Below are positions 10,555-40,538 of a DNA stretch of 64,000 nucleotides, one piece after another. Source of the DNA: an uncultured Eubacteriales bacterium (GTDB taxonomy: Bacteria > Bacillota > Clostridia > Oscillospirales > Acutalibacteraceae). The first letter of the stretch is position 1, and every line of letters begins with the position of its first letter. The notes below the pieces were generated by a model. The model was not told the DNA's origin. It saw nothing but the letters and a program-made list of their open reading frames with translations, and made no database searches. The stretch covers positions 33,396 through 97,395 of the forward strand of contig CAYQYT010000002.1 of assembly GCA_964421815.1 (NCBI GenBank). Direction: 5' to 3'. The position numbers and the translations under genes were made by a program.

Positions 10555-10711
10555 AAATACACCACCATAAAACTGTATATAAACACATATTATCACAGGT
10601 TTCACAAGCCTTCAAGAGAAAAGTTGTTTTTATAAATTTATATCTGCATACTTGAAATTTTTCCTTTCTGTGATAAAATTAAGAAACTGAATATAATAAG
10701 GTGGTTCTTTT

Positions 10712-11476: not shown

Positions 11477-11618
11477 TCATAAGGTAATCATAGATAGTCA
11501 ACGGGGATGTAGAAGTGAAAGCTTTTACATCCCTTTCGGTATATTTGACAGATTGTAAACATTGTGATATAATTTTCCTCGTTTTAGATTACAAATTGTA
11601 ACTTTTAGGAGAGGGAAT

Positions 11619-25724: not shown

Positions 25725-28700
25725 ATGAAACAATCCACTAAATTGTTAAGCATGATTCTTGCACTCATAATGGCATTTAGTTGTATGACTGTTATCGGTA
25801 GCGCTACAAAAGAAGACGTTACCAAAGATAAAATGACATATGACTCAGTTGACGACGCTATTCTTAGTGCAGAACAGGCTGCAACAGTTCTTTTCAACTA
25901 TTTGGATGCATCAGTAATGCCCGGCTTGGGTACTGTGGACCTCAGTGTTCTCGGTGAATTGAATCTTACAAGTATCGACAATGCTGTATCATCCATCTAC
26001 AACTTACTTAACAACGGTACTGTAGGTTTTTTGGCTGTTTCGGTAACCGACCTTAAAAACCTGACCGCAGGTAAGAATCTTCTTAAAGGCGTTCAGAGAA
26101 GCGGCGGCGACCTTAATGTAGCCTATGCCCTTTTCAACTACCTTGGAGCAGACGGAACCGTGAAGGTTGTTAAAAAAGCACCCTACGGTCTTCTTACCAG
26201 TAACGGTATTTCCCTCGGTTCACTCCTTAACGGTATAGTCAAGAGCTTCGCTGATATCAGTGAAATCAATGGTATTCTCACAGACATCAACGGTTATGTA
26301 ACCAAGATGGTTTACGACATGCTCATCCACGGCTCCTATAAAGAGGGTTATGAGAACAACAGCTATCCTTCCGCTGAAGATCTCGGCGGCACACTTCCTG
26401 CCGGGTTAACTACTATTGACAGCATAATCGACATGGCTGTTGCAGGTCTTCTTACAAGCCCTCAGGATTATGAATGGGATGAAGTTACACCTACATTGAA
26501 AAATTGGGATATGAATTCCTATGTTATGCCCACATTTGCAAACAACTATACTGCAGCAGATGCGGCAACATATCTCAGCCTTTCAAATCCAAGCAACAGC
26601 ATTTTTGCTCTTCTTGACAAAGTTGCTCCCTATGCAATTTATGACCTTGGTATCAATCCTCTTAACAACAACCTCAAGAAAGCTCTCTTTGACGCTGTTG
26701 AGGCAGAGACTAAAGAAATTGATATAAGCAAGGTTCCCGCAGATGCTAAAACAGCATTTGAAGCCGACAAGGAAGATGGTACTGAAAGTTATATAACATA
26801 CATCTCATACGACAAAATCTTCAAGAGCAGCGACGGTGAGTGGTATTATACAACTCTCAAGAACTCAGAGAAAATCGGTTCTAACGGTGAGCCGGAGACT
26901 GATAAAGACGGCAATGTAGTTATTGAAAAGGTTCGTAAATATTACAGAATCAACACTGCGTCTGCAAACTCTTTCTTCGATCTCATTAACTGGGATTGGA
27001 ACATTACTGCTCCCAACCCCGTTAACGGTACAGCAACCGGAGCAATCAATGAACTTGATTATGCAGGACTTATCAGCCAATACGGTTCAATCACTCAGGC
27101 TCTTAACCATCTTGTATATATCGTTGCTGAAAACGCACTTTCCGACTATGCAGGAAAGTACTTTAACGAAGTAGTTTACGGTGATGCAGAGGCAGGTAAC
27201 CCCATCTGGAAAGACGGAGCTACATCCGCGGCAGAAGGTAATTCAACCGTATTCCTTAAAAACGTTGAGCGCATCGTTAAATTCCTTCTTGCGGAATATG
27301 CAGATAAGATTTTCGGTGAGGATTCACCCTATGTTGCTTGGGAATATTCAGATGTTGAAAATATGACTCTTGTTGAGCTCATTGCACACATCGGTCCCAC
27401 ATTCTTTGAGGATGCAATGCCCCAGCTTATCATGCCCAAGGATGAAAATGGCTTGGTAGCATTCCACGACGGTGTTCAGATTCTTGAATTCGGTGCAATT
27501 GTAATCCGTGAGTTTATGACTGAAATTACTCCCGATGTCAACTACGATGCACAGATTTTTGCAGCAGGCACATTGACCTCTGCAGGAGGCAGACAGTTCG
27601 CGAGTCATTCCGCAGACGAATGGTTCGACCTTATTCTTAATATGGGTATGGACATTGCCTACACATATCTCAACCAGATTACAAACTTCAACACTGCTAT
27701 TCCTGCACAGGAAATCACAGCAACACGTTGGCAGGGTATGCTTGACAACGCAATCCTTTGGGCTGTTGGCTACGTAAGCAGCGCGGACGGTGCAAACGGC
27801 GTTCTTAAAGGCATTTCAAAGAATGAAGTTAGCGCAATTACCGGTCCTCTCAATAAGCTCAGCTACATCTTAAACACAATCCTTCCTCTTGAATTTGTTA
27901 ACGGATGCACAACCGCAGCTTATGACCTTGACGTTGAAGTACTGTTTAACAAGGTTAAAGATCTCTTCCAGAACTTCAACCTTGATACAATTGTTAGTCT
28001 CTTCGGACGTAACACAGACCCAAACACCTACAACATTCTTAACACAGGTGACGTTGTTACAACCCTTCTTGATGTTGTAGATAACATTCTTGCTCTTGTG
28101 CTCAGAGCCCAACTTCTCGGCACACACGAAAGTGTTAACGCTCTGCTTCAGAGTGATAACCTCAGCACGGTAATCGCAAATCTTCTTAACCAGCTTGAAG
28201 CAAGTGCACCTGCTCTTCTTACAAGTGCTCTTCCCGTAGTTTGTAAGCTTATTCCCGATTTGGGCGGCGAACAGGAACTCGGTGAACCCAGCATCGGTCT
28301 CAGAACTACTGTTGGTCTTAACAACGGTGCTTCTCCCACGGATAAAGACACGGGAGCTGTTAAAACCACTTTCATGATTACAAACGGTTCAACAGGTCTT
28401 TGGAGAGGTTATAAGGACGCAAGCGGCAACACTCAGAATGATAACCATTACAAATACCAGATTACCGATGTAAAGGCTTATAACTATGATGGTTCTGCTT
28501 CACCCTATATTACAAACATAACTCTTAGTGCCAAAGAACTTGACTACAGCCAAGCAGCAACAGTTACTTATACAGTTGCCAACGTAACCGACCCCGGTGT
28601 CATTGTCAGATTCGACGTATCATATAAGGTTCTTGATGAAGACGGCAATGCTCTTGCTAATAAGACGTTTGTAAAGTCATCCTATGCATGGTTGAGTTAT

Positions 28701-31226
28701 TACGAAAGTTCCGATGAAGGTACCAGAACTTTCTTGTTTGACGGATCAAACTGGGCGGGCGATAACCTTAGGTTTGGTACTAAATCACCCCAATATCTTG
28801 ATATAGATAATATAGAATCCGATATTGAGAATACAGCTCCTGCATTTATATTGTTTGATAACCCGACAAAGAGACTTAACGGATACAACGTTACGGCTAC
28901 ACCTTTTGACGGTATAACACCCGGTACTGCAGACAAGGGTTCCAGTGACTACTTGGGTTCGGGTACAAAGAGAGAATTCCCGAATATTTATCTCTTTAAA
29001 GACGGTACCTACGTTTGTGAAGGCGGTAAAACAGAAGGCGACAGAAGCATCACGGTTACCGGCGCATCTTTCAACCGTGCTGCTTGGGAAGCTGCAAACA
29101 GAAAAGAAGGCAACGAAACCAAAACGTCTGTAACGATCACGTGTAAACCGGGTAGCAATACTGAGACAAAAACCGGCGATGTAATAATTAAGTATTACAG
29201 CTCTGTAAATGCTTCCAAGCTCTTATCTCTTGTTAATGACGAAGCTAAAATTCAGAGAACAACGGATATGTATCATAATGACAACACTACCTACTATGCT
29301 GACAGACTCCTTCGTACAACGGAAGTAAGCGAAGACCTTCTTAAAGAAACCACAAGCACAGGAACTGCTTGGATTGATGACGATAAGAATGTATATGCTG
29401 AGTCACAGGTTACAAATATCGTTACCACCAACTATAAAGTTAACGGAAAAGATACCGGAATCGTTGAATCCGAGACCGGTACGGTAGTTAGCGGTGATAC
29501 AAAGATTGCTGTTAAAAAGGTTACAACACTTAACGGTGCAGATGTTTGGAACAGATACAGGGCCAACCTTGAAATCGGTATGCGCGGTGCATGGCAGATT
29601 AAGTGGCGTACAGAATCACTCTTCAACCAGGGAGAACTTTACAAAAACCTTTATATCTCTGCAACAGAAGTTCAGTTCCTTAAATTAACTGACCTTGAGC
29701 TTGCAGCAACCGGCGGTGCAGGCCTTGACAGTGCAGTTGATGCACTCGAAGCACAGCTTGACGCTGTTGAAGCTCAGTACAGCGATACTCAGGACTATAC
29801 TGATTATATGATGTATAGATGGAACCGTTACAACACAGTAAGAGAGGACGCAAGATCAATCGTTGATAAGAAGAAGGCAGCTGCTCCCTCAGCACCCGAT
29901 TCTAAGTTCTTCCCCTACTCAGGTGTAACAGAAACAGAAATTAAGGGTATTTTGTCAAATTCAGCAAACGCAGGTATTATCGGCAGCTATGTGGGCGGTA
30001 CTGATGATGGAAACTTCATCTCCGCACTTCTTGAGGATTATACCGCTGAAGAGATGCTTGTACGTAACAAAGAACTCGAAAATGCAAAGAGCAGATATGC
30101 AAACGTTTCCGCTCTTGACGTTGCACAGGCATCGAACCTTCTTAACAGAATCCCCGCAAGACTCATTGTACGTTATAAAGATGCAAGCGGTAACAAGACT
30201 GTTGTTAAAACACACCTTGCTAACGAAATTGCTTCCGCAAATGCAATGATCGGCAAAGTGAACGTAGATGAATTCGGCGATCCCAAATACACAGATCGTA
30301 GCTGGAGCAGATATGAAAAAGCTCTTGCAGCTGCTGAAGCTTTAAATGCTGATGCTAAGGCAACACAGATGCAGATCTTTGACACTAAGTGGGAACTTCT
30401 TATTGCACGTAACGGTCTTGTACTTCTTGCTGACGAGGCTGATTACAGCGAACTTGAAGAACTCATTGCACAGGCTAAGAATGCACTTGCACATCAGGAT
30501 CTCTATGACAACACTGCTAAAGATTTTGGTGCAGTTCTTGCAGAACTCGGCTTTGGTTATGATGAAGAGGGCGAGGCTATTAAGGTTGCTCTTGCAAACG
30601 GCGATAAGGTAGATCTCTTCCCCGGTTCCGCAGAAGAAGTTAACCATAAGGGTTACGACTGGACCGATCAGAAGAAGATTGACCGTGCAGCAACAGCTCT
30701 TAAAGAAGCTCTTGCAAAACTCAAATTCAAAGATTCAAATGTTGGATTTGCAGATGGCTCCGATACAGTCAAAGACATCGTTCTTGTTGAAGCAGACGAG
30801 AAAGCAGGCATTGAAGAAGTTAAACTCAGCAGTGTTGCAAAAATCGGCGCTAAGCTTGATGCAGCAGCTGTTAAGGCTCTCTTCACAGCAACCGGTTCAG
30901 AAGATGCTATCGTTTCTGCAGACGTTAACTACTCTGCAGCACAGTATGATGTTGACGGCTTTGTTGGTACAAACGCAACAATTACTTACTACAAAACTAT
31001 CGACGAAGTTAAAGTTCCCGTTGCAACAATTAAACTTGTTGTTGAAGGTGACGTAAACGGCGACGGTGTTGTTAATGTACTTGACGCAAGTATCGTACAG
31101 GTTGTTTCAACTGAGCATGCTGAACTTGAAGGTGCATACCTTGTAGCAGGTAACATGGTTGGCGACATTACAGCCGGCATCGATAGAGATGACTATCTCC
31201 AGGTTGTTAACAAAGTTCTTGCATAA
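25725..31226 (+). CDS. very large secreted protein with FIVAR-like helical modules and a C-terminal dockerin
   Basis: The ORF is trimmed to the ATG at 25725 (RBS GGAGGT 6 nt upstream), giving 1833 aa. The signal peptide is MKQSTKLLSMILALIMAFSCMTVIGSA. A FIVAR-like segment reads YTDRSWSRYEKALAAAEALNADAKATQMQIFDTKWELLIARNGL. The dockerin is GDVNGDGVVNVLDASIVQ...GDITAGIDRDDYLQVVNKVL. Confidence 0.8.
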   Translation: MKQSTKLLSMILALIMAFSCMTVIGSATKEDVTKDKMTYDSVDDAILSAEQAATVLFNYLDASVMPGLGTVDLSVLGELNLTSIDNAVSSIYNLLNNGTVGFLAVSVTDLKNLTAGKNLLKGVQRSGGDLNVAYALFNYLGADGTVKVVKKAPYGLLTSNGISLGSLLNGIVKSFADISEINGILTDINGYVTKMVYDMLIHGSYKEGYENNSYPSAEDLGGTLPAGLTTIDSIIDMAVAGLLTSPQDYEWDEVTPTLKNWDMNSYVMPTFANNYTAADAATYLSLSNPSNSIFALLDKVAPYAIYDLGINPLNNNLKKALFDAVEAETKEIDISKVPADAKTAFEADKEDGTESYITYISYDKIFKSSDGEWYYTTLKNSEKIGSNGEPETDKDGNVVIEKVRKYYRINTASANSFFDLINWDWNITAPNPVNGTATGAINELDYAGLISQYGSITQALNHLVYIVAENALSDYAGKYFNEVVYGDAEAGNPIWKDGATSAAEGNSTVFLKNVERIVKFLLAEYADKIFGEDSPYVAWEYSDVENMTLVELIAHIGPTFFEDAMPQLIMPKDENGLVAFHDGVQILEFGAIVIREFMTEITPDVNYDAQIFAAGTLTSAGGRQFASHSADEWFDLILNMGMDIAYTYLNQITNFNTAIPAQEITATRWQGMLDNAILWAVGYVSSADGANGVLKGISKNEVSAITGPLNKLSYILNTILPLEFVNGCTTAAYDLDVEVLFNKVKDLFQNFNLDTIVSLFGRNTDPNTYNILNTGDVVTTLLDVVDNILALVLRAQLLGTHESVNALLQSDNLSTVIANLLNQLEASAPALLTSALPVVCKLIPDLGGEQELGEPSIGLRTTVGLNNGASPTDKDTGAVKTTFMITNGSTGLWRGYKDASGNTQNDNHYKYQITDVKAYNYDGSASPYITNITLSAKELDYSQAATVTYTVANVTDPGVIVRFDVSYKVLDEDGNALANKTFVKSSYAWLSYYESSDEGTRTFLFDGSNWAGDNLRFGTKSPQYLDIDNIESDIENTAPAFILFDNPTKRLNGYNVTATPFDGITPGTADKGSSDYLGSGTKREFPNIYLFKDGTYVCEGGKTEGDRSITVTGASFNRAAWEAANRKEGNETKTSVTITCKPGSNTETKTGDVIIKYYSSVNASKLLSLVNDEAKIQRTTDMYHNDNTTYYADRLLRTTEVSEDLLKETTSTGTAWIDDDKNVYAESQVTNIVTTNYKVNGKDTGIVESETGTVVSGDTKIAVKKVTTLNGADVWNRYRANLEIGMRGAWQIKWRTESLFNQGELYKNLYISATEVQFLKLTDLELAATGGAGLDSAVDALEAQLDAVEAQYSDTQDYTDYMMYRWNRYNTVREDARSIVDKKKAAAPSAPDSKFFPYSGVTETEIKGILSNSANAGIIGSYVGGTDDGNFISALLEDYTAEEMLVRNKELENAKSRYANVSALDVAQASNLLNRIPARLIVRYKDASGNKTVVKTHLANEIASANAMIGKVNVDEFGDPKYTDRSWSRYEKALAAAEALNADAKATQMQIFDTKWELLIARNGLVLLADEADYSELEELIAQAKNALAHQDLYDNTAKDFGAVLAELGFGYDEEGEAIKVALANGDKVDLFPGSAEEVNHKGYDWTDQKKIDRAATALKEALAKLKFKDSNVGFADGSDTVKDIVLVEADEKAGIEEVKLSSVAKIGAKLDAAAVKALFTATGSEDAIVSADVNYSAAQYDVDGFVGTNATITYYKTIDEVKVPVATIKLVVEGDVNGDGVVNVLDASIVQVVSTEHAELEGAYLVAGNMVGDITAGIDRDDYLQVVNKVLA

Positions 31227-31419
31227 GTAATTTGAAATGTTTAAAATCCATTGACTGAAAAAACTCTCCTGCCGAGAAATCGGCAGGAGGGGAAGTTGAA
31301 AACTGCATACCATTTATATATATAATATATGGGTGTTTCAGATTTCCGCAGTCAATCGGTGCAGTCGAAAGACTGTTGTTTGGAGAGAATTTGAAAAAAT
31401 TACTCAAGGAGGCAAACAA

Positions 31420-32517
31420 ATGTCTAAAAAAATTATTAGTGTTATGCTTGCCCTTGTACTTGTTCTTTCAACATTGGCAACTGTTGCTTTTGCAGCAGGC
31501 GTTACCTTTGAAGAATTGGACGCAGAAGGTTTAAGCACAAATACACAAACTTGGTCCCTTGGTGAACCAAAAGATAACGGAGACGGCACATATTCCGTTG
31601 ATGTTACTCTTACCACAAACTACCCCACAGGTGCAATTCAGTTTCTTGTTGAAGAAACCGACCCTGACAACGCTATTACACTCACGGGTGTAACAGTTGG
31701 TTCGGCTATCACTTATGATGCTGAAGCAAGTAAAAACTCTTCAGGTCTTGTAGTTATCGTTCCGCAGACAACTGCAGATACCAGTTTGATTACCGCACCG
31801 GTAATTGATGGTGTTGTTGCAACCCTTACCTACACTTATGCAGGTAGCGGTTCTGCACAGATTGCTATCAAAAACGATCCTTTTAACGAGGAGAATGCAG
31901 CCGGTACTCTTATTGCAGCACGTATGGGCAACGGTAACATTGTTGGCACAGATTTCATTGCAGGCCAGACAGTTTTGTCAACAGGCGAAGCAAAAACAAT
32001 CGGTGCAGCAGGCAAACCCGAACTTGTTGTAAAAGCAGGTACAAACGGTGCTATTAACGATACTTACAAATGCGTTTACGGTATAGATGTTATGGATGCA
32101 GGCGAAACCCTTAGCGATGTATTTGAAGTTACCAACGGCGGTTCCTTTGTGGTAACACCCAGTGTTGAAGGTGTGGAAGAAGGAACGGGCGCTGTTATTA
32201 CTGTTTATTCCGGTCCCAACGGTACGGGCAGTGTTATCGGCGAATATACCGTAGTTATTCACGGTGATGTAAACGGTGACGGTTCTGCTGACTCACTTGA
32301 TGCCAGCATTCTTTGTGAGTTTGAAATTGGATTTATATCTGATTTCAGTGCTTACGGTATCTCTGATGATATAGCATTCATCGCCGGCGATGTTAACGCA
32401 GATGGCGGTGCTGATAGTCTTGATGCAAGTATTATTTGTGAGTTTGAAATTGGCTTCTTAGAAAATCTCTATGATATTACAACTCTTCCCGGAGACCTTG
32501 CAACTGTTTGGTGCTGA
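31420..32517 (+). CDS. secreted protein with a cohesin-like N-terminal module and an atypical twin-segment dockerin
   Basis: Trimmed to the ATG at 31420 (RBS AAGGAGG), giving 365 aa with a signal peptide. The cohesin-like pattern is YSVDVTLTTNYPTGAIQFLVEE. The C-terminus has two almost identical 23-aa segments, DVN(G/A)DG(S/G)ADSLDASI(L/I)CEFEIGF. Confidence 0.6.
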   Translation: MSKKIISVMLALVLVLSTLATVAFAAGVTFEELDAEGLSTNTQTWSLGEPKDNGDGTYSVDVTLTTNYPTGAIQFLVEETDPDNAITLTGVTVGSAITYDAEASKNSSGLVVIVPQTTADTSLITAPVIDGVVATLTYTYAGSGSAQIAIKNDPFNEENAAGTLIAARMGNGNIVGTDFIAGQTVLSTGEAKTIGAAGKPELVVKAGTNGAINDTYKCVYGIDVMDAGETLSDVFEVTNGGSFVVTPSVEGVEEGTGAVITVYSGPNGTGSVIGEYTVVIHGDVNGDGSADSLDASILCEFEIGFISDFSAYGISDDIAFIAGDVNADGGADSLDASIICEFEIGFLENLYDITTLPGDLATVWC

Positions 32518-32574
32518 TTTTTAGTTTATATATTTTGTAAATAATTTAATTTAATAGTTTTAGGAGGCACAAAA

Positions 32575-33660
32575 ATGTCTAAAACAAAAAAAGTACTTAG
32601 CCTTGTAATGGCTATTGCACTTATGTTCAATGTTTTGGCAATTGCGTCATCTGCTGCTTGTGCAGACGGTAAATTAGTCGGTTTTACTGCAGAGTCAGCT
32701 GATAAGCTTGTTGCCGGTGGTACAGTAACTGTGGATTTTTATATTGAACTTCCTGCAGGTACTGACTACACAACGTATAAACTCGGTTTGTTCCAGTTAA
32801 TTGTTTCTTATAATAAAGATATCTTGACCCCCGTTACAAGAACATGGGGCGATACTTATGCAGAGTTTATGGCACCTACTAACGGATTTAATACAACCAC
32901 CTCTACTGTTCACGGTTGGATTTCATCTTATCTCACAACAGAAGAGGCGCCAAAATATACCGGTTCTTGTGCAATTGCCGGTAGCCAAGTTGATAATACC
33001 AATTCCTATGGATATACGGGTTCAACCGGTTATTGCATTAAATCATTAAAAGATAAGATGTTTTCAATCACTTTCAAAGTTGCGGATACTTACGACGGAA
33101 CATCTTCCGCAGATGTTGCTATTCTTCAGAATTCTTTCCAGAATGCAACAAGAGCTTACTTGCGTGATATTACCGGTAATGGCGGTAGTAAACTCAACAA
33201 AAATGGTTCACAGGTTGACTGGTCTGATAGTGCTGTTACATTGACTGCAGCTGCATCTGCAACTCCCTCTGTAGCTCATGATAAAACAATGGGTCAGATG
33301 AAGAGCTGGGCATCTTTGACAGGTCCCTTCAACGGCGGTTTGGTTGGTAGAATTTCTAACCTTCCTTTGACCTTTGATGAAAATGACAACTGTAACGAAA
33401 TTAAAAAGATTGAAGTTACTATCGCAACTACCGATGGTTCAACAACTGCTGAAGCATATACTGTTTACAAACAGGCAGACGGTTCATATCTCTTCCGTGC
33501 TGTAATCAAAAATATGACTATCACAGATGAAGAAACATTAACATGCACTTATGCTGTTACAAAGGCTGACGATACAGTTATCTACAGTGATCCTTTTACA
33601 ACAACAGCAAAACAGATGTATGACACAGCACTTGCTAATTACACAGCAGCAAATCCGTAA
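32575..33660 (+). CDS. secreted cohesin-like domain protein
   Basis: 361 aa with RBS AGGAGG and a signal peptide ending ASSAACA. The N-terminal module GGTVTVDFYIELPAGTDYTTYKLGLFQLIVSYNKDILTPV follows the cohesin beta-sandwich pattern. No dockerin is present. Confidence 0.5.
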   Translation: MSKTKKVLSLVMAIALMFNVLAIASSAACADGKLVGFTAESADKLVAGGTVTVDFYIELPAGTDYTTYKLGLFQLIVSYNKDILTPVTRTWGDTYAEFMAPTNGFNTTTSTVHGWISSYLTTEEAPKYTGSCAIAGSQVDNTNSYGYTGSTGYCIKSLKDKMFSITFKVADTYDGTSSADVAILQNSFQNATRAYLRDITGNGGSKLNKNGSQVDWSDSAVTLTAAASATPSVAHDKTMGQMKSWASLTGPFNGGLVGRISNLPLTFDENDNCNEIKKIEVTIATTDGSTTAEAYTVYKQADGSYLFRAVIKNMTITDEETLTCTYAVTKADDTVIYSDPFTTTAKQMYDTALANYTAANP

Positions 33661-33866
33661 TGATTTCGAGAGCTTACGAAAAAGCAGATTTTCAAATTAT
33701 AGAGTTTGCCGTTGAGGATGTTTTGACCGCTTCAAGTGTTGTTCACACAACTCGGCCAAACACAACCGCCCCTTCAACCACTTTGCCCGGAACAACTTCC
33801 GGCAACGGAAACATAGCAGGCGGCAGCGGCGACGCGGAATTTGATTATTCTGACCTTTTCCAGTGA
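33660..33866 (+). CDS. small ORF (68 aa) with a leader-like N-terminus paralogous to the next peptide; translationally coupled (TAATG) to the cohesin-like gene
   Basis: It reads MISRAYEKADFQIIEFAVEDVLTASS, then a T/P/G/S-rich region ending DAEFDYSDLFQ. It shares the phi-x-phi-E-phi-x-phi-EDVLTxSS motif with the 33909 peptide. Confidence 0.4.
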   Translation: MISRAYEKADFQIIEFAVEDVLTASSVVHTTRPNTTAPSTTLPGTTSGNGNIAGGSGDAEFDYSDLFQ

Positions 33867-33908
33867 TTCAATAATACTTTAAAGATATTGAAAGGAGTAT
33901 TTTTTATA

Positions 33909-34034
33909 ATGAAAAAATACACAGCACCTGAGCTCGAAATCATGGAGATCGAGCTCGAGGATGTACTCACAGTTTCCAGCGGAACTGATGGCGAATGGAA
34001 CGCTTCTCTTGGCGGAGATAACGGTTGGTATTAA
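33909..34034 (+). CDS. 41-aa peptide with a RiPP/lasso-like leader (below the ORF-track length cutoff; found by reading the sequence)
   Basis: AGGAG lies 11 nt upstream of the ATG. Translation: MKKYTAPELEIMEIELEDVLTVSSGTDGEWNASLGGDNGWY, then a stop. It is followed by a terminator. Confidence 0.55.
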   Translation: MKKYTAPELEIMEIELEDVLTVSSGTDGEWNASLGGDNGWY

Positions 34035-34124
34035 TTATCAACGGTTTTTCCGATAAAGTTATGTAGTCCCTCCCACCATGTGTGGGAGCGGGCTGTGAGT
34101 AAACCTCATATTAAAAAATTTTCA

Positions 34125-34150
34125 GCAAGCCGGGGTAACCCGGCTTGTTT
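34125..34150 (+). terminator. intrinsic terminator after the small-peptide genes
   Basis: CAAGCCGGG-gtaa-CCCGGCTTG followed by TTTGAGTT. Confidence 0.65.
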
Positions 34151-34349
34151 GAGTTAATAAATTTGTTTCTGTTTGGTTTTGCAAGCCTTACAAATCGAAA
34201 CAGGTACAAATTTACGGCACTTTCAACAACCCGCTAAGCTTTATTGTAAAAATAAACTTCGGGTTCACACGTAAAAATATACGAACAAAAAGCCGACAGG
34301 AACTATCCGATAATATGTCGAAATAATAACCGCAAGAGAGGATTATTTT

Positions 34350-34832
34350 ATGCCCAAGGTAAATATGGAAACGTTGCTTCCCTATATTGAGGAGGCGTTC
34401 AAAAGAGGAAAGTCATTCCGGATTCCCGTTACGGGAACAAGTATGAATCCTCTTTTGTATCAAAACAGGGATTTTGTTAAAATAGAAAAACCCACGCTGC
34501 CCCTTAAATTGGGCGATATCCCGCTCTATCGCAGAAATGACGGCTCCTTTGTTCTTCACCGTGTTGTGGGACTGACAGAAAACGGCGAATACATTATGTG
34601 CGGAGATAACCAAACCCTTTTGGAATACGGTATTACCGACAAAAATATTATAGGAATTGCAAAGACCCTTATTATTGACGGCAGGGAAGTTGATACGGAC
34701 AATGATGCCGAGTATTTAAGATATAAAGAAAAATCTCTGAAAAACATCGGTGGCAGATATCCTTTAAGACGTTTTAAACGCAGGGTATTTCGATTGGCAA
34801 AAAAATGCCTGACAAGTTTATCCCGCAACTAA
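34350..34832 (+). CDS. S24/S26-family serine peptidase-like protein (soluble, LexA/signal-peptidase fold)
   Basis: 160 aa. The nucleophile motif is VTGTSMNPLL. The beta-barrel core reads GDIPLYRRNDGSFVLHRVVG...MCGDN. There is no N-terminal TM, and the C-terminal tail is basic and amphipathic. Confidence 0.65.
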   Translation: MPKVNMETLLPYIEEAFKRGKSFRIPVTGTSMNPLLYQNRDFVKIEKPTLPLKLGDIPLYRRNDGSFVLHRVVGLTENGEYIMCGDNQTLLEYGITDKNIIGIAKTLIIDGREVDTDNDAEYLRYKEKSLKNIGGRYPLRRFKRRVFRLAKKCLTSLSRN

Positions 34833-34960
34833 AAACACAGTTAATTTCATGTATAAAATTTTTAAAAACTATTGTAGATTGATTCGTTTTATGTTACAAT
34901 GAGTAGCATAGAATATTGTGGCTTTTCACAGCATTTATTAATTTAAAAGGGGATTCTAAA

Positions 34961-36445
34961 ATGGCTTACGAAGAGAAAAGAACACCCAACGACGATGTTA
35001 TGGGGTTTGAACCGATTCTTAAAATTATCAGAACCGTTTTTGCTAAATGGTGGCTCGTTGTTATTTTTGCCGTTACTTTTGCCGTTGCAGGTTTCGGCAT
35101 TGCTAAAATTACTTATACCGAGGTGTATTCTTCAGGTATAATATTTAACGTTTCCAACAAAGACAGAGATATTGCGGGCAGTGCCGGTGCCTATACTTCT
35201 GCAAGTGATGCCCAGGCCTCCACAACTCTTGCCAACAACTTTAAAACACTTATTCAGACAGGTAATGATTTTATTACCATGGTACAGGACATTGTTAAAT
35301 CCACTACCGGTCAGGAGTATTCCAAAAAATTCCTCCGCGGCTTAATTGATGTTCGTGTTGTTACCGATACAACTCTTATTAAGGTTAACGTTAATTCAAA
35401 TGATGAAGAATTAACCTATGCCGTTGCTTCCGCAATCCAAAGCATTTACCCGGAAATTGCCAAGAAGGCTTTCCCTACGGCTGAGATCAGCGTTGTTGAT
35501 AATGCCACCAAAGCTGCTCTTGCTTCCGACTCTACAACACTTATTTATACTGCTTTAGGATTATTTTTGGGTGCGGCTATTGCGATATTTATAATTCTCA
35601 TTGTCGCAAAAATGCAAAACAAACTGCAGAGTACGGATGATATTAAAAGTAACTTTGGTTTGAGCATTCTTGCCACTGTTTCCAATATTAAAAACAAAAA
35701 GAAAACAGATACTAAAAGACTTCTTATTACCGACAAAAATGTGGGACTGCCTTTTATTGAAACGTTTAAGCTCATCAGAACAAAGCTCGAAAACATTAAG
35801 CTGAAAAAAGGTTATTCCGTATTTGCCATAACAAGCTCTACGGAAAGTGAAGGCAAAACCACTTGTTCCGTTAACACTGCCCTCTCCCTTGCAAAAAGCG
35901 GTAAATCCGTTCTCCTTATTGATGCGGACCTCAGAAAACCCGCTGTTTGTAAAACTCTCGGCATTTCCCTTGAGGGCGAAAGAGGCGTTTATGATATTGT
36001 CAAAGGCAACAAATCCTTTGAAGAATCCGTTAAATACATAGAGAAACTTAACCTCTATCTGCTTGTTACCTCTGTTGCCGTTAAAGATCCGTCGGAAACA
36101 CTTGCTTCCGATGCCATGAGCGAAATTATTAAACAGGCAAAAGCCAACTTTGATTATGTAATTATTGACTGTCCTCCTGCGGGTGTTGTTGCCGATGCAG
36201 CTATTGTGGCAAACTACACCGATTCAGTTATTTTTGTTACAGCGGAAGACAGAGTTTCAATTTCACAGATTGAGTACGCACTCAGTGACCTTACAACCGC
36301 AAAATCCGAAGTGCTCGGTTGCATTTACAACTGTGCCGGCAGCGGTAAAGGTTCCTTTGTTACAAACAGGGCGGACGGTTATTTCTCCAACTACGGTGCG
36401 TCATATTACTATGGCGGTAAGACACACAGGTCTTCAAGACATTAA
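34961..36445 (+). CDS. fused Wzz-type chain-length determinant / bacterial tyrosine (BY) kinase (CpsC-CpsD or CapA-CapB fusion type)
   Basis: Trimmed to the ATG at 34961 (RBS AAGGGGA), giving 494 aa. Two TM helices flank an extracytoplasmic domain. It has Walker A SSTESEGKTT, A' LLIDADLRKP and B DYVIIDCPP, and a C-terminal tyrosine cluster YFSNYGASYYYGG. Confidence 0.85.
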   Translation: MAYEEKRTPNDDVMGFEPILKIIRTVFAKWWLVVIFAVTFAVAGFGIAKITYTEVYSSGIIFNVSNKDRDIAGSAGAYTSASDAQASTTLANNFKTLIQTGNDFITMVQDIVKSTTGQEYSKKFLRGLIDVRVVTDTTLIKVNVNSNDEELTYAVASAIQSIYPEIAKKAFPTAEISVVDNATKAALASDSTTLIYTALGLFLGAAIAIFIILIVAKMQNKLQSTDDIKSNFGLSILATVSNIKNKKKTDTKRLLITDKNVGLPFIETFKLIRTKLENIKLKKGYSVFAITSSTESEGKTTCSVNTALSLAKSGKSVLLIDADLRKPAVCKTLGISLEGERGVYDIVKGNKSFEESVKYIEKLNLYLLVTSVAVKDPSETLASDAMSEIIKQAKANFDYVIIDCPPAGVVADAAIVANYTDSVIFVTAEDRVSISQIEYALSDLTTAKSEVLGCIYNCAGSGKGSFVTNRADGYFSNYGASYYYGGKTHRSSRH

Positions 36446-36510
36446 CCGGTTAAGAACTCAATTGGGACTGTAAAAACAAAGTTTTTTGAGTCGTACTCTA
36501 AAGGACAAAA

Positions 36511-36553
36511 AAGAGTTAATGTAGCAAAAAGCTACATTAACTCTTACTTTTTT
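36511..36553 (+). terminator. intrinsic terminator
   Basis: AAGAGTTAATGTAGC-aaaaa-GCTACATTAACTCTT followed by ACTTTTTTG. Confidence 0.85.
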
Positions 36554-36554
36554 G

Positions 36555-36800
36555 CACTGCCACTAAAAGTGGTGAGTAAGTGCGCCTTTAACTTCAAGTG
36601 ATATTCTTTCCTTCGGAAAGAGTGATATTATGCACTTTTCGGCATAGTGATATTGAAATCTTCGATTTCAGTGTTATTTTATTCGCATAAAACTGTCCGA
36701 AGGACAATATCACAATGCGTAGCATTATATAACTGCGAAGCAATATCACTCGCCGTATGGCGAATAAAACTGCGTGAGTGTCCTCTGGACACCCACGCAT
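36555..36800. repeat. array of short hairpins punctuated by GTGATATT (left half) and AATATCAC (right half) octamers
   Basis: GTGATATT occurs at 36598, 36622 and 36647, with a degenerate copy at 36671. AATATCAC occurs at 36706 and 36742. Interleaved mini-hairpins include CTTTCC-ttcg-GAAAG, GAAATC-ttc-GATTTC, GTCC-gaa-GGAC, AATGC-gta-GCATT, CGCC-gtat-GGCG and GCGTGAGTGTCC-tct-GGACACCCACGC. Confidence 0.75.
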
Positions 36801-36905
36801 TACAGTCCCTCTTTCTTATTCTGTTTTTAGTCATTATTTATAAAAAATCACAATATTTTTCTAAACAAATTCGTCCTTTTTTTTCAACAGAAAACATAAA
36901 AACTA

Positions 36906-36933
36906 TTGATTATTTTATCTTTTATGGTATTAT
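36906..36933 (+). promoter_or_regulatory. possible sigma-A promoter (extended -10) for the pilus operon
   Basis: TTGATT, 16 nt, TGgTATTAT. The region is very AT-rich, so alternatives exist. Confidence 0.3.
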
Positions 36934-37058
36934 ATATATGTATATTGTCTTATTGTGTTTAATAGGCGATTTATAAAATGGATTTGTATAATTATTACAT
37001 AATTCCTAATTGATTAAATTATTTTTAGGTAATTATATACTGATTTGGAGGCTTGTTT

Positions 37059-37580
37059 ATGGCACTTGAATTACCCAAATTAACAAAAAAAGAAAAACAA
37101 CCCGGTGAAAAATCTCAGCTCGCCTTGAAGGTTGGACAGTTTTTCGAGAAAAATCCGATTATGAAGATAATCATTCCGGTGATTCTTTTTCTGATTCTTG
37201 TTGCGGTTTTTCTATTGGTAATTTTCGGTGACGGTGTTTTGACCGATGACGAAAACGCGGACACAACGGCGAATTCCGCCGGAACTAACGAGGTTCAGGT
37301 CGTCCCGGGAAACAACATCATCAGAGATAAAGAAATTACTAAGCTGATTGACAATGATCCTCTTTCTCCCGATATTCTTGCCACCGCCACTTACACCGGC
37401 TCGGTTACGGGATCAAGCGGTTTGAAAACCGCACTTATTCAAATCGGTACATCCGGTGATACATTGGTTCTTTCGGCAGGTGAAACAATCGGGGATTCCG
37501 ATTGGGAACTTATAGAAATTTACTCCGACTATGTTGTTTTTAAAGCCGGTAACATAACTAAGAAATTGGAATTAGCCTAA
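37059..37580 (+). CDS. PilP-like bitopic pilus alignment protein
   Basis: Trimmed to the ATG at 37059 (GGAGG 7 nt upstream), giving 173 aa with an N-terminal TM. The C-terminal beta domain follows the PilP/GspC-HR pattern: LATATYTGSVTGSSGLKTALIQIGTSGDTLVLSAGETIGDSDWELIEIYSDYVVFKAGN. Confidence 0.5.
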   Translation: MALELPKLTKKEKQPGEKSQLALKVGQFFEKNPIMKIIIPVILFLILVAVFLLVIFGDGVLTDDENADTTANSAGTNEVQVVPGNNIIRDKEITKLIDNDPLSPDILATATYTGSVTGSSGLKTALIQIGTSGDTLVLSAGETIGDSDWELIEIYSDYVVFKAGNITKKLELA

Positions 37581-37627
37581 TACTTAAAGTAAACTATTTT
37601 ATTCTACATAAATAGGGGGATTTTCAG

Positions 37628-39424
37628 ATGAAAACAAACAAACGCAAAATGAGGTCAATTGGCATTTTTGCCCTTGTACTTGTTCTGCTTGTGAGCATGA
37701 TTTTACCGCTCTCAGCAGCCGGCAGTGCCATTGACGAAGCAATGGGAACCTATGTGGTTAAGCAGGGTGATACACTTTCTTCCATTGCCGCGGCTCACGG
37801 TGTTACCGTTTCAGACATTGTAACATCCAACGGAATTTCTGCTTCTGCAGAGCTTTATGCAGGTCAGAAACTTTCCATTCCCGGTGCGGTTAATATCGAG
37901 GACGACTCCACTACATATTACGGCACATCAAGTTCCATTTCCATTAACTTTAAGGATGCGGACCTTATCGGTGCTCTCGAAACCGTTCTTGCTCACACGG
38001 GCTACACAATGATTTTTAAGGGCAGCACCACAACTGTTCCCGAAATTTCTCTTGATAATGTGTCACCTCTTACAGCCATTGACTATATTCTTCGTATGGT
38101 TGATATGACTTATATCAAGAATGATGACATGATCTATGTGGGTACAGCCGGCGACCTTAACTCAAGTTTTGCAGACAGCGAAGCCCTTACCAAATTCTCT
38201 CTCAAATATATTTCTACCGATACGTTGACTTCTCAACTTTCAACACTCGGCGTCAGCGTTAAGCTCGTTAAGGTTGATATCAACCTCAGAGAATTTTGGC
38301 TCAGCGGTACACCCATGCAGCTTGCCAAAGTTAATCAGCTTATTAAACTCCTTGATAATAAAAAGAATACAACTATCAGTAGTGCAAAGATTAGTTCAAG
38401 TCTTACCGCTATTGAAATGAAACATATTTCCGCCAGCGAGTTCAGCAGTTTGCTTGGTTCTCTCGGCCTTCATACCGGTATCGTTATGAGTGCCCACCCC
38501 ATGACACTTTTTGTATATGCTTCAGGCGATGCTTATAAAGACATTATGAGAGTTAAGAAACTCGTTGACTACTATGACGAAAATGCTGCCGAAAACACAG
38601 AAACAGAGGGTACAACGGATGTTGCAGGAGACGGCACAACAGGTGGCACAACGGGTGGCACAACGGGTGGCACAACCGGTGGTACAACAGGCGGTACAAC
38701 CGGCGGCACAACCGGTGGTACAACAGGTGGTACAACAGGTGGTACAACAGGCGGTACAACAGGCGGTTCAACAGATGTTGTGATCAGCGACGGCGAAACC
38801 TCACTTGTAAAAATTGACCTTCAGTACATTACAAAAGAAGATGCAAGCCAAATAGTTACTACATTCGGTTATGATGTTGAAATACTCGGCCTCGATCTCT
38901 ATGAAAAGAGAATTTGGATCCAGGGTGAGGCAGAAGAAGTTGAAGAAGCAGTTGCAAGAATAAAAGAAAACGATACTGCCGAAAACGACGCAACAAAGAT
39001 ATTCTTCAAATACGAGCTTCAGAATATTGTTGCCTCCGAACTTCAGAGCAAGGTTGGTTTCGTTAACCTTGACGATGTTGAATTCTACTTCGGCTCATAT
39101 CCTCAGCAGACTAAATCCATTATGGTATATTGCAGCAAGAACAAGGAAGCAGAGGTTAAGGAAATCATAGCCTCTCTTGATAACAACCTTGACAAAATGT
39201 ATTATCCCATTGAAAATATTCTAAGTGATGAGGCTCTGGCATCTGCAAGACTGAAGATGGATCTTGTTGTTGAGCTTCTCCACAACCCGGAAATCAATAG
39301 TAGTACTTTTGCTGTGTCCGGCGATCTTGATTCAACTGATGACGGCGTAAAATATGTTATTTATGTTTACGCTTCTCCCGAAAACATTGACCTTATTACA
39401 GATATGTGGGGCAAGATAGGCTAA
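37628..39424 (+). CDS. secreted LysM protein with a secretin N0-like domain and about four NolW/Secretin_N-type ring-building modules, but no secretin beta-barrel domain
   Basis: 598 aa with a signal peptide. The LysM domain is YVVKQGDTLSSIAAAHGVTVSDIVTSNGI...YAGQKLSIP. The N0-like domain is ISINFKDADLIGALETVLAHTGYTMIFKG...ISLDNVSPLTAIDYILRMVDMTYIKNDDMIYVG. Repeated modules of the type TKFSLKYISTDTLTSQLSTLG...LSGTPMQLAKVNQLIKLLD follow, plus a (GGTT)n linker. Confidence 0.6.
   Translation: MKTNKRKMRSIGIFALVLVLLVSMILPLSAAGSAIDEAMGTYVVKQGDTLSSIAAAHGVTVSDIVTSNGISASAELYAGQKLSIPGAVNIEDDSTTYYGTSSSISINFKDADLIGALETVLAHTGYTMIFKGSTTTVPEISLDNVSPLTAIDYILRMVDMTYIKNDDMIYVGTAGDLNSSFADSEALTKFSLKYISTDTLTSQLSTLGVSVKLVKVDINLREFWLSGTPMQLAKVNQLIKLLDNKKNTTISSAKISSSLTAIEMKHISASEFSSLLGSLGLHTGIVMSAHPMTLFVYASGDAYKDIMRVKKLVDYYDENAAENTETEGTTDVAGDGTTGGTTGGTTGGTTGGTTGGTTGGTTGGTTGGTTGGTTGGTTGGSTDVVISDGETSLVKIDLQYITKEDASQIVTTFGYDVEILGLDLYEKRIWIQGEAEEVEEAVARIKENDTAENDATKIFFKYELQNIVASELQSKVGFVNLDDVEFYFGSYPQQTKSIMVYCSKNKEAEVKEIIASLDNNLDKMYYPIENILSDEALASARLKMDLVVELLHNPEINSSTFAVSGDLDSTDDGVKYVIYVYASPENIDLITDMWGKIG
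38633..38773 (+). repeat. in-frame 12-nt tandem repeat (about 11-12 copies of GGY ACA ACN GGN) encoding the (GTTG)n linker
   Basis: Direct reading of the sequence. Copies differ only at wobble positions. Confidence 0.95.
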
Positions 39425-39449
39425 AAACTTTTCATTTGGAGTGACTGAA

Positions 39450-40538
39450 ATGGAATATATAAATCAACCGAGTATGTATCCCGTGAACCTTGAGCAATTG
39501 CTCAGGCTCACGGTTGAGAAAAAAGGCTCCGACCTTCATATCGTTGTAGGTATGCCTCCTTGCATTCGTATTGACGGCGACATCGTTAAGCAGGATTTTC
39601 CCCCTATGACTCCTCCGGATGTCGAGAATATGCTTATGCAAGTATTATCGGACAAACACAAAAGAGAATTGCACGATAATTTGGAACTTGATATTTCCTA
39701 TTCGGTCCCCAAATGTGCTCGTTTCAGAGGTAATATTATTGTTCAGCGCGGTACTCTCGCCGCGGTTTTCAGAGCAATTCCCTTTGAAATTCCCACTCTT
39801 GACAAATTAGGTTTACCTGCCGATGTAAGAAGACTTTGTTCTCTTCCCCGTGGACTTATACTTGTTACAGGCCCCACCGGTAGCGGCAAATCAACTACTC
39901 TTGCGGCAATGCTAAACCACATGAATATAAACTATGAATATAACATAGTTACCATTGAGGACCCCATTGAGTTCTTACATTCCCATAAACGTTCCATCGT
40001 CAGACAGCGTGAGTTGGGCGGAGATACACTCAGTTTTAACAATGCGTTGAGAACGGTTCTTCGTCACGACCCGGACGTTATTATGATCGGTGAAATGCGT
40101 GACCCGGAAAGTATCAGTATCGCTCTTACGGCGGCTGAAACAGGTCACCTTGTTCTATCAACATTACATACACAGACTGCTCCGCTGACAATTTCCCGTA
40201 TTATCGACTCTTTCCCCAGCGAACAGCAGAACCAAATCAGAAGCCAGCTTTCCAATACTTTGCGTGCTGTTATTTCCCAACAACTAATGCCTCGTTTAGG
40301 CGGCGGCCGTGTTTCTGCGGTTGAGTATATGGTGGATACTCCCGCTATCAGAAATATGATTCGTGAGGGTAAGGACCATCAGCTTTACAGCACCATGCAG
40401 ACCGCTCAAAAAGAGGGCATGCAGACAATGGACCAGGCTCTTCTTAAACTGCTCAGAGAACAGAAAATCAGCAGAGAATCTGTTTTGGAAAACTGTGTTG
40501 AAAGAGCGGAAATTCTCAGACAAATGCAGATGTATTGA
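39450..40538 (+). CDS. pilT: type IV pilus retraction ATPase PilT
   Basis: Trimmed to the ATG at 39450, giving 362 aa. There is no N-terminal GspE-N domain. Motifs are Walker A GPTGSGKST, an Asp box, a His box and the PilT signature AIRNMIREGK. Confidence 0.85.
   Translation: MEYINQPSMYPVNLEQLLRLTVEKKGSDLHIVVGMPPCIRIDGDIVKQDFPPMTPPDVENMLMQVLSDKHKRELHDNLELDISYSVPKCARFRGNIIVQRGTLAAVFRAIPFEIPTLDKLGLPADVRRLCSLPRGLILVTGPTGSGKSTTLAAMLNHMNINYEYNIVTIEDPIEFLHSHKRSIVRQRELGGDTLSFNNALRTVLRHDPDVIMIGEMRDPESISIALTAAETGHLVLSTLHTQTAPLTISRIIDSFPSEQQNQIRSQLSNTLRAVISQQLMPRLGGGRVSAVEYMVDTPAIRNMIREGKDHQLYSTMQTAQKEGMQTMDQALLKLLREQKISRESVLENCVERAEILRQMQMY

Follow-up and report, generated by a model that had tools for sequence, protein, structure and literature searches.

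Linear polyphosphorylated peptides (LPP) from Bacilli were described in May 2026, and the genes of the system, encoding LppA, K, B, S, D and N, were characterised in Paenibacillus alginolyticus (Popov et al., Nat Commun 2026, PMC13381572). The LPP precursors are 35-200 aa long and vary at the C-terminus, the N-terminus being conserved; the published leader consensus, YxxPxVLxHQxIxFETxxS, is derived from SSN cluster 1, i.e. from Bacilli. The leader is cut after T-1 by LppS, a SipW-like peptidase with the residues S29, H68 and D93, in an LppB-dependent reaction, and S3 is polyphosphorylated. Deletion of LppN left the detectable LPP products unchanged, and for the Clostridial SSN clusters of the same paper no precursors are given (PMC13381572).

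The second system to be considered is that of the phosphorylated lasso-peptide clusters of the paeninodin/pseudomycoidin type in Firmicutes, in which a [Y/W]xxPx[L/V/I] leader and a discrete PqqD RRE are found with an HprK-like kinase and an NTP_transf_5 tailoring enzyme, besides an Asn-synthetase-like cyclase and a transglutaminase-type B2 protease. The peptide system described here likewise has the first four and is without the last two.

The window, a stretch of 64,000 nucleotides from an uncultured bacterium of the Acutalibacteraceae, carries two small open reading frames, ORF1 and ORF2, followed by the gene of a soluble protease (table 1). A first-pass annotation had taken ORF2 for an orphan lasso-type precursor, matured by genes located elsewhere or by an undescribed route. 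In the light of what follows, ORF1 and ORF2 are likely LppA-like precursors of a Clostridial LPP branch, with the gene at 34350 encoding their LppS-like leader peptidase. The route, rather than being undescribed, matches the LPP family (PMC13381572); the Clostridial leader type and the split architecture are not described in the LPP paper (PMC13381572). What is observed are the genes, their conservation and selection, their homologies and their cis or trans arrangement in relatives.

Table 1. Features of the peptide locus (positions refer to the window).
Feature	Position	Strand	Basis or remarks
Giant dockerin-bearing protein, 365-aa dockerin protein, 361-aa cohesin-like protein	25725..33660	+	always precede the peptide pair
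ORF1, probable LppA-like precursor, 68 aa	33660..33866	+	ORF calls, orthologues, leader selection
Shine-Dalgarno AAGGAG of ORF2	33892..33897	+	11 nt before ATG
ORF2, probable LppA-like precursor, 41 aa	33909..34034	+	ORF calls, homologue clusters, leader profile
First hairpin 3' of ORF2	34064..34095	+	-23.2 kcal/mol, z -3.1
Second hairpin, GC-rich, then UUUGAGUU	34124..34149	+	-22.5 kcal/mol, z -5.1
Probable LppS-like soluble SipW/ER-type signal-peptidase-I homologue, 160 aa	34350..34832	+	BLASTP, fold, conserved residues
Wzz/tyrosine-kinase-type gene, head of type IV pilus operon	34958..36445	+	always after the peptidase in S-side loci

The precursor pair and its leader

That the two adjacent frames share a leader block, as had been noted from the DNA alone, is borne out by their coordinates, by invariant residues and by conservation. 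The leader of ORF1 is MISRAYEKADFQIIEFAVEDVLT and that of ORF2 is MKKYTAPELEIMEIELEDVLT, the latter with T21 and S23 invariant; E13, E17, D18, V19, T21 and S23 (ORF2 numbering) are invariant in ORF1 and ORF2, in a third paralogue encoded on contig C15 and in relatives from further genomes, and the common block is not due to chance. YTAPEL in ORF2 and the degenerate YEKADF in ORF1 both read as claimed. The YxxA of the latter is equivalent to the P-13A change that weakened RRE binding of the LPP leader (PMC13381572), and YxxP is present in several ORF1 orthologues. An RRE-binding leader of the PqqD type, proposed for a RiPP precursor encoded by ORF2, would belong to ORF1 as well. Past the leader, ORF1 has a variable middle part rich in Thr, Pro and Gly and then a conserved C-terminus, EFDYSDLFQ; ORF2 has an acidic, hypervariable core that ends in a conserved GWY. 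The ATG of ORF1 shares one base with the TAA of the upstream 361-aa gene (TAATG), the overlap expected from the suggested coupling to this cohesin-like gene, and the ribosome-binding site ascribed to ORF2 is present (table 1).

Of 24 congeneric genomes, 18 carry the tandem pair, as do about 50 of the 65 species-level loci that were fetched. Orthologues of ORF1, of 59-74 aa, occupy the same position in about 50 loci, and a near-invariant leader is common to 111 clusters homologous to ORF2. The pN/pS of the leader, 0.20 in ORF2-type and 0.34 in ORF1-type genes, points to purifying selection on both leaders, the cores being hypervariable; ORF1 and ORF2 are conserved genes under selection that have one leader block in common. 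The search for this block in the genome and its relatives, which the first-pass annotation had proposed, yielded a very large Clostridial family, with 5,268 cluster representatives retrieved by the leader profile. Neither peptide is matched by any model in Pfam and NCBIfam scans, and a full-text literature search with leader motifs such as EDVITTS gave no match. A match of ORF2 to an SH3-like PDB sequence (E 0.019) is regarded as chance.

As in LPP, the precursors are small, with a conserved YxxP-bearing leader and a variable C-terminus. The leader here, (K)YxxPE(L/M)EI(M/V)EFExEDV(L/I)TxS, differs from that of LPP in having a Tyr-to-Thr spacing of 17 instead of 15 and T-x-S in place of T-x-x-S, and, since it departs in this way from the Bacilli consensus, the sites of cleavage and phosphorylation are uncertain here; because it is a different subtype, no membership in the Bacilli core group is claimed. 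Furthermore, LPP cores are basic and rich in Gly, Asn and Lys, whereas those found here are acidic, ending in GWY or EFDYSDFFQ, and two precursors stand in tandem.

The DNA around ORF2 is itself conserved. The 120 nt from 33849 to 33968, which include the AAGGAG of ORF2, are 96-100% identical among six species, and the second hairpin is a conserved island of about 87% identity across species. Inversion or recombination sites were considered for these islands and rejected, as no second copy exists anywhere in the genome, and an Rfam search for structured RNA returned only a sub-threshold CRISPR-DR match (E 0.1). Of the terminator that had been placed after ORF2, two stable hairpins stand, the second of which is probably a terminator or attenuator, but the U-tract is weak and a consensus terminator scan called no terminator after ORF2.

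The peptidase and the dispersed maturation genes

The protein encoded at 34350 is 27% identical to LppS (WP_029196374.1; BLASTP E 2.6e-9) and 39% identical to a Ruminococcus SSN-9 member of the LPP paper (BLASTP E 8e-25); like LPP, the system thus has a soluble SipW-like Ser/His peptidase homologous to LppS. S31, H70 and E92 align with the catalytic S29, H68 and D93 of LppS, the Asp of the triad being replaced by Glu, and G29, T30, S31, M32, H70, D86 and E92 are invariant among 15 orthologues. An S24/S26 fold is seen in the AF2 model (pLDDT 88), which matches LexA/UmuD and type I signal peptidases only (clan-SF), at a weak Foldseek E of about 0.006. Pfam and NCBIfam scores are sub-threshold, with weak NCBIfam matches to TIGR02228 and SipW; those of the C15 paralogue include TIGR02754, the NiSOD maturation protease. 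The nearby soluble S24/S26-like protease of the first-pass annotation is, therefore, confirmed by homology and fold, if not by Pfam or NCBIfam score, and, in line with its idea of a processing route different from that of lasso peptides, is the likely leader protease.

The S26B-type Ser/His motifs GTSM...HR...GDN of SipW/ER-type signal peptidases are present. As in SodX, the NiSOD maturation protease, there is no membrane anchor, and, like SodX, the enzyme would cleave off an N-terminal propeptide within the cytoplasm. It scores far under the cut-offs of the SipW and SodX families and is not a general secretory signal peptidase; in contrast to theirs, its substrate is putatively a RiPP leader presented by an RRE.

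Neither a PqqD-type RRE nor an HprK-like kinase is encoded in the window. The suggestion that maturation genes lie elsewhere holds for some of them: a PqqD-type RRE (60 bits) is found in trans on contig C4 (103636-103899), where it adjoins an HprK-like kinase (102930-103631) with the Walker motif SGTGKST and weak family matches to ScmC and HprK_rel_A. The C4 RRE retains N33, Y60, D70 and F74, the residues with which LppB holds Tyr and Pro, in this respect resembling the discrete PqqD RRE of LPP. The two proteins may act on the window peptides in trans, if at all.

At the peptide locus of this genome there is no PF14907 NTP transferase (LppN), other NTP_transf_5 copies being located on contigs C15 and C19, and an ABC exporter of the MsbA-like LppD type is missing from the locus here and from every congener locus examined. 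The only exporter in the peptide clusters of this genome belongs to a separate cluster on C15, with the same leader type, which comprises a peptide, an HprK-like protein, PqqD (38 bits, over the gathering score), an S24-like protein 46% identical to the 34350 peptidase, the ABC exporter, LytTR and NTP_transf_5 (E 4e-41). PDB sequence searches with the C15 RRE, with the peptide and with the peptidase gave no useful match, and LppB (9x8z) was not retrieved.

In four congeners (G002, G003, G017 and G018) the genes form a single block, giant-dock-coh-pep-K-B-S-N-Wzz-T4P, in which BLAST labels one peptide and the tandem pair was placed by profile search. The K and B of these blocks are 50-68% identical to the C4 genes versus 25-41% to the C15 genes, which indicates that the orthologous RRE and kinase are relocated to contig C4 in this genome. 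The RRE is in cis in the same four congeners and in G001 and G022, while the HprK-like kinase is in cis 3' of the peptides in about 26 species besides the full blocks; PqqD is found in all 24 congeners and an S24-like gene in 23 of them.

In the genome under study K and B are thus in trans and N is absent from the locus, at variance with LPP; S and N are fused in many relatives, and the locus always has giant dockerin/cohesin-like surface-protein genes on one side and a type IV pilus operon on the other. Shared with LPP are the HprK-like kinase and the PF14907 nucleotidyltransferase in clusters of the leader family, the lack of a macrolactam cyclase and the vicinity of polysaccharide-type genes (Wzz kinase, LCP).

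The 34350 peptidase is without the NTP_transf_5 domain, which is fused to the peptidase in many relatives, the closest included (fused or adjoining in 16 of 25 S-side loci). The missing domain and the position of K and B outside the locus would fit a decaying LPP remnant, whose precursors and peptidase ceased to function when the NTase domain was lost and K and B moved. This we consider quite improbable, in that the S-only arrangement recurs in nine other species, the peptidase is full length with its catalytic residues intact, and both precursor frames are intact, a same-cluster variant of the precursor (P0001, 95% identical) differing at two core residues only. Across species the leaders of the family are under purifying selection. 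Moreover, the closest relatives with a window-type locus also have pilin, PqqD and HprK elsewhere, in a block 64-82% identical to the C4 genes and followed by an LCP gene in G014 and G021, and in the published system the loss of LppN is without effect on detectable products (PMC13381572).

It may also be asked whether the small frames encode unprocessed proteins, the N-terminal strand of which binds co-transcribed surface proteins, cohesin-like or dockerin-bearing, or the pilus machinery instead of serving as a cleaved leader. Such a role would suit the translational coupling of ORF1 to the cohesin-like gene, the lack of an exporter at the locus, and the position of LppA-like genes about 60 nt or less 3' of large secreted-protein genes (in the window, on C15 and C1 and in 8 of 10 distant loci). 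It is highly unlikely in view of the canonical clusters in which the same leader family is found with an HprK-like kinase, a PqqD RRE, a soluble SipW-like peptidase, an NTP_transf_5 enzyme and an ABC exporter, such as K-pep-B-S-ABC-N in Ruminiclostridium (L088) and pep-K-B-S-ABC in Agathobacter (L099). The peptidase lies 3' of the pair in window-type and contiguous congener loci and at the pilin locus in K-side loci, the leader bears the YxxP motif for which the trans RRE retains the Tyr- and Pro-binding residues, and no motif common to the peptide cores and the neighbouring giant, dockerin and cohesin-like proteins was found.

The lasso-peptide reading

Several features had suggested a lasso peptide. 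The leader is lasso-like, with YxxPxL and, if cleavage occurs after V22, possibly a Thr at -2; the core would begin with Ser, and Asp or Glu is present at core positions 7-9 in 94 of 111 orthologues versus about 55% expected from composition. Paeninodin-type lasso clusters likewise have PqqD RREs and HprK-like kinases, although their leaders typically carry Trp where Tyr is found here, and leader removal here is putatively due to an S26-type serine peptidase.

The absence of a lasso cyclase, a B2 protease and an ABC exporter nearby, as already noted, holds for all ORFs at 28000-40000 and for the Pfam and NCBIfam scans of the neighbouring genes. The genome-wide check for cyclase genes, likewise proposed, revealed none that is credible. 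The B2 protease model PF13471 has no match at E<=0.1 in the genome, which is 98.7% complete. PF00733 matches AsnB on C11, a 575-aa protein on C19 and a 328-aa frame on C10 (22.8 bits). The Asn-synthase-like protein on C19 is the only cyclase-like candidate other than AsnB; it is encoded in a polysaccharide locus, and its scores with two lasso cyclase models are 60 bits (cut-off 525) and 29 bits (cut-off 300). By these scans, a credible lasso cyclase is absent from the genome. None stands beside the peptides in the congeneric loci examined either, where K, B, S and N occur.

Furthermore, the length of many orthologous cores does not suffice for a threaded lasso: the median is 13 aa, and in 53 of 94 no more than 5 aa follow the putative ring acid. 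The lasso-type label is, therefore, dropped; that ORF2 is a true lasso precursor, with cyclase and B2 protease encoded elsewhere or in the missing 1.3% of the assembly, is extremely improbable.

Proposed route and wider reading

For the LPP-type reading preferred here, the steps of binding, phosphorylation and export, the precise site of cleavage and the biological role are inferred by homology to the Paenibacillus alginolyticus system. The PqqD-type RRE encoded on C4 would bind, in trans, the YxxP strand at the N-terminus of the leader; the adjoining HprK-like kinase would phosphorylate, perhaps repeatedly, the invariant Ser just past the leader (S23 in ORF2, S25 in ORF1); and the soluble Ser/His peptidase would cut the leader presented by the RRE, the most likely site being behind the invariant Thr, i.e. 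EDVLT|VSS in ORF2 and EDVLT|ASS in ORF1. The product released would be a linear acidic core, 20 aa long for ORF2 and 45 aa long for ORF1, with no macrolactam ring.

The locus gives concrete precursor families to the Clostridial clusters for which the LPP paper left them undetermined, and the Clostridial branch, from gut and rumen bacteria and hitherto unannotated, is far larger, with 5,268 representatives, its own leader consensus and no Pfam or NCBIfam model. Genes of this family, of about 35-70 aa, are routinely missed in annotation, and their loci are at risk of being taken for those of orphan lasso precursors. The pathway is modular: the cluster can split across the genome, peptidase and NTase can be fused and the exporter can be missing. 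The constant context, after giant secreted-protein genes and near Wzz, LCP and type IV pilus genes, provides a testable lead to LPP function.

That the LPP-type peptides of the Clostridial branch are partners of giant surface proteins and of the pilus and polysaccharide machinery, as opposed to free antibiotics, is an unlikely proposition as it stands. If true, the peptide gene would be co-transcribed with a large secreted protein, and the polyphosphoryl-Ser would be a reactive handle, through which NTP_transf_5 or LCP-type phosphotransferases could join the peptide to glycan or cell wall. The core, acidic and hypervariable and with an invariant Trp motif at its C-terminus, would on this view mark the surface in a strain-specific way or act as a recognition signal, and the ultra-conserved leader DNA and the conserved terminator around the core would permit cassette-like exchange of cores between species.

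The two precursor genes and their leader family

The two small ORFs reported in the first-pass annotation were found as claimed, with the AAGGAG sequence preceding ORF2 (see table), and neither was matched by a Pfam or NCBIfam model. The terminator placed after ORF2 was borne out in part: two stable hairpins lie there, but a consensus terminator scan called neither.

Features of the precursor genes and of related loci on other contigs of the same assembly (C1, C4, C15, C19)
Feature	Position	Strand	Description
ORF1	33660-33866		68 aa; ATG overlaps TAA (TAATG) of preceding 361-aa cohesin-like gene
ORF2	33909-34034		41 aa; AAGGAG 11 nt upstream
lpp-like cluster	C15:40541-49166	minus	complete; outside the window
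Locus of the fourth LppA-like gene, MNKEYTTPDFDITIFEIESILTSSSGGGGWEEDDNG	C1:258616-262766	minus	directly after 1193-aa secreted protein
Pilin-like gene, PqqD, HprK-like kinase, LCP	C4:101776-104574	minus	
C19 locus	C19:21494-26802	minus	NTP_transf_5 (E 1.9e-43) beside AsnB-like 575-aa protein

A six-frame scan of the whole 2.07 Mb genome, in which the window is C2:33396-97395, revealed a third paralogue on C15, and a profile search a fourth on C1. In the protein database, ORF2-type peptides form 111 clusters sharing a nearly invariant leader, MKKYTAPELEIMEFELEDVLT[VLI]S, the identity of which is partly a selection effect because the search was word-seeded. Their cores are acidic and hypervariable (median 13 aa, net charge -2.5), with Trp among the last five residues in 111/111 and a GWY end in 64/111. 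Leader conservation is backed independently by the pN/pS of genes drawn from genomic loci, namely 0.20 for 15 ORF2-type and 0.34 for 14 ORF1-type genes; in ORF1 orthologues (59-74 aa) the leader is retained together with (E)FDYSDFFQ at the C-terminus. The search for the leader block proposed earlier was carried out with a profile built from diverse leaders against 1.84 billion representative proteins, and uncovered a family of 5,268 members (E<=0.001), almost all of 30-70 aa, with the consensus MKEKYxxPEMEIVEFETEDVITTS. In canonical clusters its partners are an HprK-like kinase (K), a PqqD-type RRE (B), an S24/S26-like peptidase (S), NTP_transf_5 (N) and ABC genes.

Relation to linear polyphosphorylated peptides

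The system is probably a variant of the recently described linear polyphosphorylated peptide (LPP) kind, as defined by Popov et al., Nat Commun 2026 (PMC13381572). It brings to light a Clostridial branch that is very large and uncharacterised. In the published systems, LppA precursors (35-200 aa) vary at the C-terminus and are conserved at the N-terminus, which contains YxxP; LppK, an HprK-like kinase, polyphosphorylates core Ser3; the RRE, LppB, is a discrete protein; LppS, a soluble signal peptidase I resembling SipW (S29, H68, D93), cuts after Thr-1 and requires leader presentation by LppB; LppD is the exporter; and LppN is an NTP transferase, the activity of which was not detected (PMC13381572). 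The clusters contain no cyclase and often lie within polysaccharide loci, and for the Clostridial SSN clusters no precursors are given (PMC13381572). The leader studied here differs from LppA in a Tyr-Thr stretch two residues longer and in a Ser at +2 rather than +3.

Compared with the reference sequences in Supplementary Data 1 of PMC13381572, the window peptidase at 34350 is 27% identical to LppS (E 2.6e-9) and 39% identical to an SSN-9 member from an uncultured Ruminococcus (E 8e-25). S31 and H70 fall in the columns of the catalytic Ser and His, E92 in that of D93, all three being invariant across 15 orthologues. The structures matched by its AlphaFold2 model (pLDDT 88, pTM 0.77) are all of LexA/UmuD or type I signal peptidases, with weak Foldseek E-values (~0.006). 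Homology to LppS and the retention of the Ser and His columns support the earlier suggestion that this neighbouring S24/S26-like protein is the leader protease.

It is quite likely, on the analysis as a whole, that ORF1, ORF2 and this peptidase belong to an LPP-type pathway, in which the RRE encoded on C4 would bind the YxxP strand of the leader, the C4 kinase would phosphorylate the invariant Ser after the leader (S23 in ORF2, S25 in ORF1), and the 34350 peptidase would cut off the leader. Cleavage after the invariant Thr, between EDVLT and VSS, would be favoured because Thr-1 is where LppS cuts and a small residue at -1 is required by S26 enzymes; candidate alternatives are the positions after V19, after L16 and after V22, the last being the site put forward earlier.

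The claim of a RiPP precursor with a PqqD/RRE-type leader was supported. N33, Y60, D70 and F74 are all retained by the C4 RRE when it is aligned with four LppB sequences. The crystal structure of LppB has a hydrogen bond from D70 to the Tyr of the leader, the Pro being held by N33 and F74 (PMC13381572); their retention in the C4 RRE fits YTAPEL of ORF2. The C15 RRE carries D70->S and F74->V, and the peptide adjoining it reads FEKAEI, i.e. Tyr->Phe and Pro->Ala, tentatively suggesting, from a single alignment, that the two co-vary. ORF1 has YxxA, Pro and Ala alternating at the same place among its orthologues; in the published system, the equivalent change, P-13A, weakened RRE binding, which was still present (PMC13381572).

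As for the lasso topology first proposed for ORF2, 94/111 cores do have an acidic residue at positions 7-9, where composition alone would give ~55%, but many of the cores lack the length for a threaded tail. Lasso identity was rejected, there being also no B2 protease and no credible cyclase: PF13471 had no match in the 98.7%-complete genome, no cyclase gene lies beside the peptides in the loci examined, and the Asn_synthase matches in the genome are AsnB on C11, the C19 protein of 575 aa and, on C10, a weak match of 22.8 bits. The C19 protein, devoid of an N-terminal Cys, reaches 60 bits (cut-off 525) and 29 bits (cut-off 300) with lasso cyclase models. It lies, beside a further NTP_transf_5 gene, within a polysaccharide locus free of nearby peptide genes, so that NTP_transf_5 is also tied to glycan synthesis.

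Distribution of the maturation genes

The possibility, already raised, that maturation genes lie elsewhere applies to some of them, the RRE and kinase being on C4. PqqD is encoded twice in the genome, once on C4 and once on C15. The closest relatives keep the C4 block, with a type IV pilin-like gene product having a Cys-rich C-terminus and a LytR-CpsA-Psr (LCP) protein; other congeners instead have PqqD-S24-NTase-Wzz-T4P after the pilin genes. Congeners G002, G003, G017 and G018 have, on a single strand, giant-dockerin-cohesin-like-peptide(s)-K-B-S-N-Wzz-PilP/PilQ-like-PilT (peptide matches: two by profile search, one labelled by BLAST). In G001 the order is contiguous from the peptides on, where the contig ends, with S fused to N; in G022 it is S-B-K.

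K-side loci (pep-pep-K-LCP) occur in ~26 species, with pilins-B-S elsewhere where checked, then N-Wzz-T4P in G013 (the G004 contig stops after S). S-side loci (pep-pep-S-Wzz-T4P) occur in 25 species, including the one studied here, with S alone in 9 (as in the window), fused to N in 14 and beside a separate N in 2; those checked (G014, G021, G006) have pilins-B-K elsewhere, 64-82% identical to the C4 genes, with LCP next in G014 and G021. Where K and B sit within the locus, in the contiguous species, they are nearer to the C4 copies (50-68% identity) than to the C15 copies (25-41%), which points to the C4 RRE and kinase as the cognate partners, in trans, of the window peptides. K, B, S and N mark rearrangement junctions, lying where four conserved modules meet: the giant proteins with the peptides, the pilins, Wzz-T4P, and LCP.

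PqqD is present in 24/24 congeners and the S24-like peptidase in 23/24; outside the genus, 2/16 genomes of the same order gave peptide matches, both weak. The genomes are MAGs of uncultured Acutalibacteraceae/Oscillospirales living in animal guts. No exporter was found in the locus of any congener examined, and the sole LppD-like gene of the genome is on C15.

Distant loci and conserved DNA

The C15 cluster encodes a surface protein of 1033 aa and the third paralogue, a 36-aa LppA-like peptide, MKEKFEKAEIEIVEFETEDVITTSGGGAVDLPFEPV. After the latter come an acidic membrane protein of 240 aa, an HprK-like kinase, PqqD (38 bits, over the Pfam gathering score), an S24-like protein 46% identical to its paralogue, the window peptidase, an ABC exporter, a LytTR regulator and NTP_transf_5 (E 4e-41). 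An IS-type integrase and a Dcm-like methylase adjoin it. The set recurs in distant loci, the gene order being K-pep-B-S-ABC-N in a Ruminiclostridium locus (L088) and pep-K-B-S-ABC in one of Agathobacter, Lachnospiraceae (L099). The latter and C15:44654-46058 share 84% DNA identity, suggesting horizontal transfer. The cores at C15:45139-46062 and L099:5983-6899 (..VDLPFEPV, ..IDTPFEPAYLYE) resemble the mature N-terminus of the next protein (AAELPFVPDGE), and many leader-family members have ELP or LPF close to the C-terminus; the likeness between core and downstream protein may reflect a shared binding motif. The C1 gene overlaps the start of that for a 147-aa acidic Ser/Thr-rich membrane protein, with no maturation genes nearby. 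LppA-like genes lie within ~60 nt 3' of large secreted-protein genes in the window, on C15 and C1, and in 8/10 informative distant loci.

Among six species, the RBS and leader DNA of ORF2 (33849-33968) shows 96-100% identity, against ~40-55% for its flanks in the same alignment; identity drops abruptly to ~40% in the core-coding segment, and a second island (34119-34148, ~87%) coincides with the probable terminator hairpin. Leader-DNA conservation goes beyond what protein-level constraint alone explains; neither an Rfam match nor a further copy in the genome was found for this region. The islands flanking the core could reflect cassette-like exchange or an mRNA-level function. In L002 and L003, two loci of relatives, the gap between ORF2 and S::NTase (~10100-12780) has grown to ~2.6 kb and holds a DUF559/very-short-patch-repair-like endonuclease gene, so that this intergenic region tolerates insertions.

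The leader-DNA islands, secreted-protein neighbours and module junctions are leads to LPP function rather than proof of it, and the finding matters mainly for the large uncharacterised Clostridial branch, with its distinctive genomic context.
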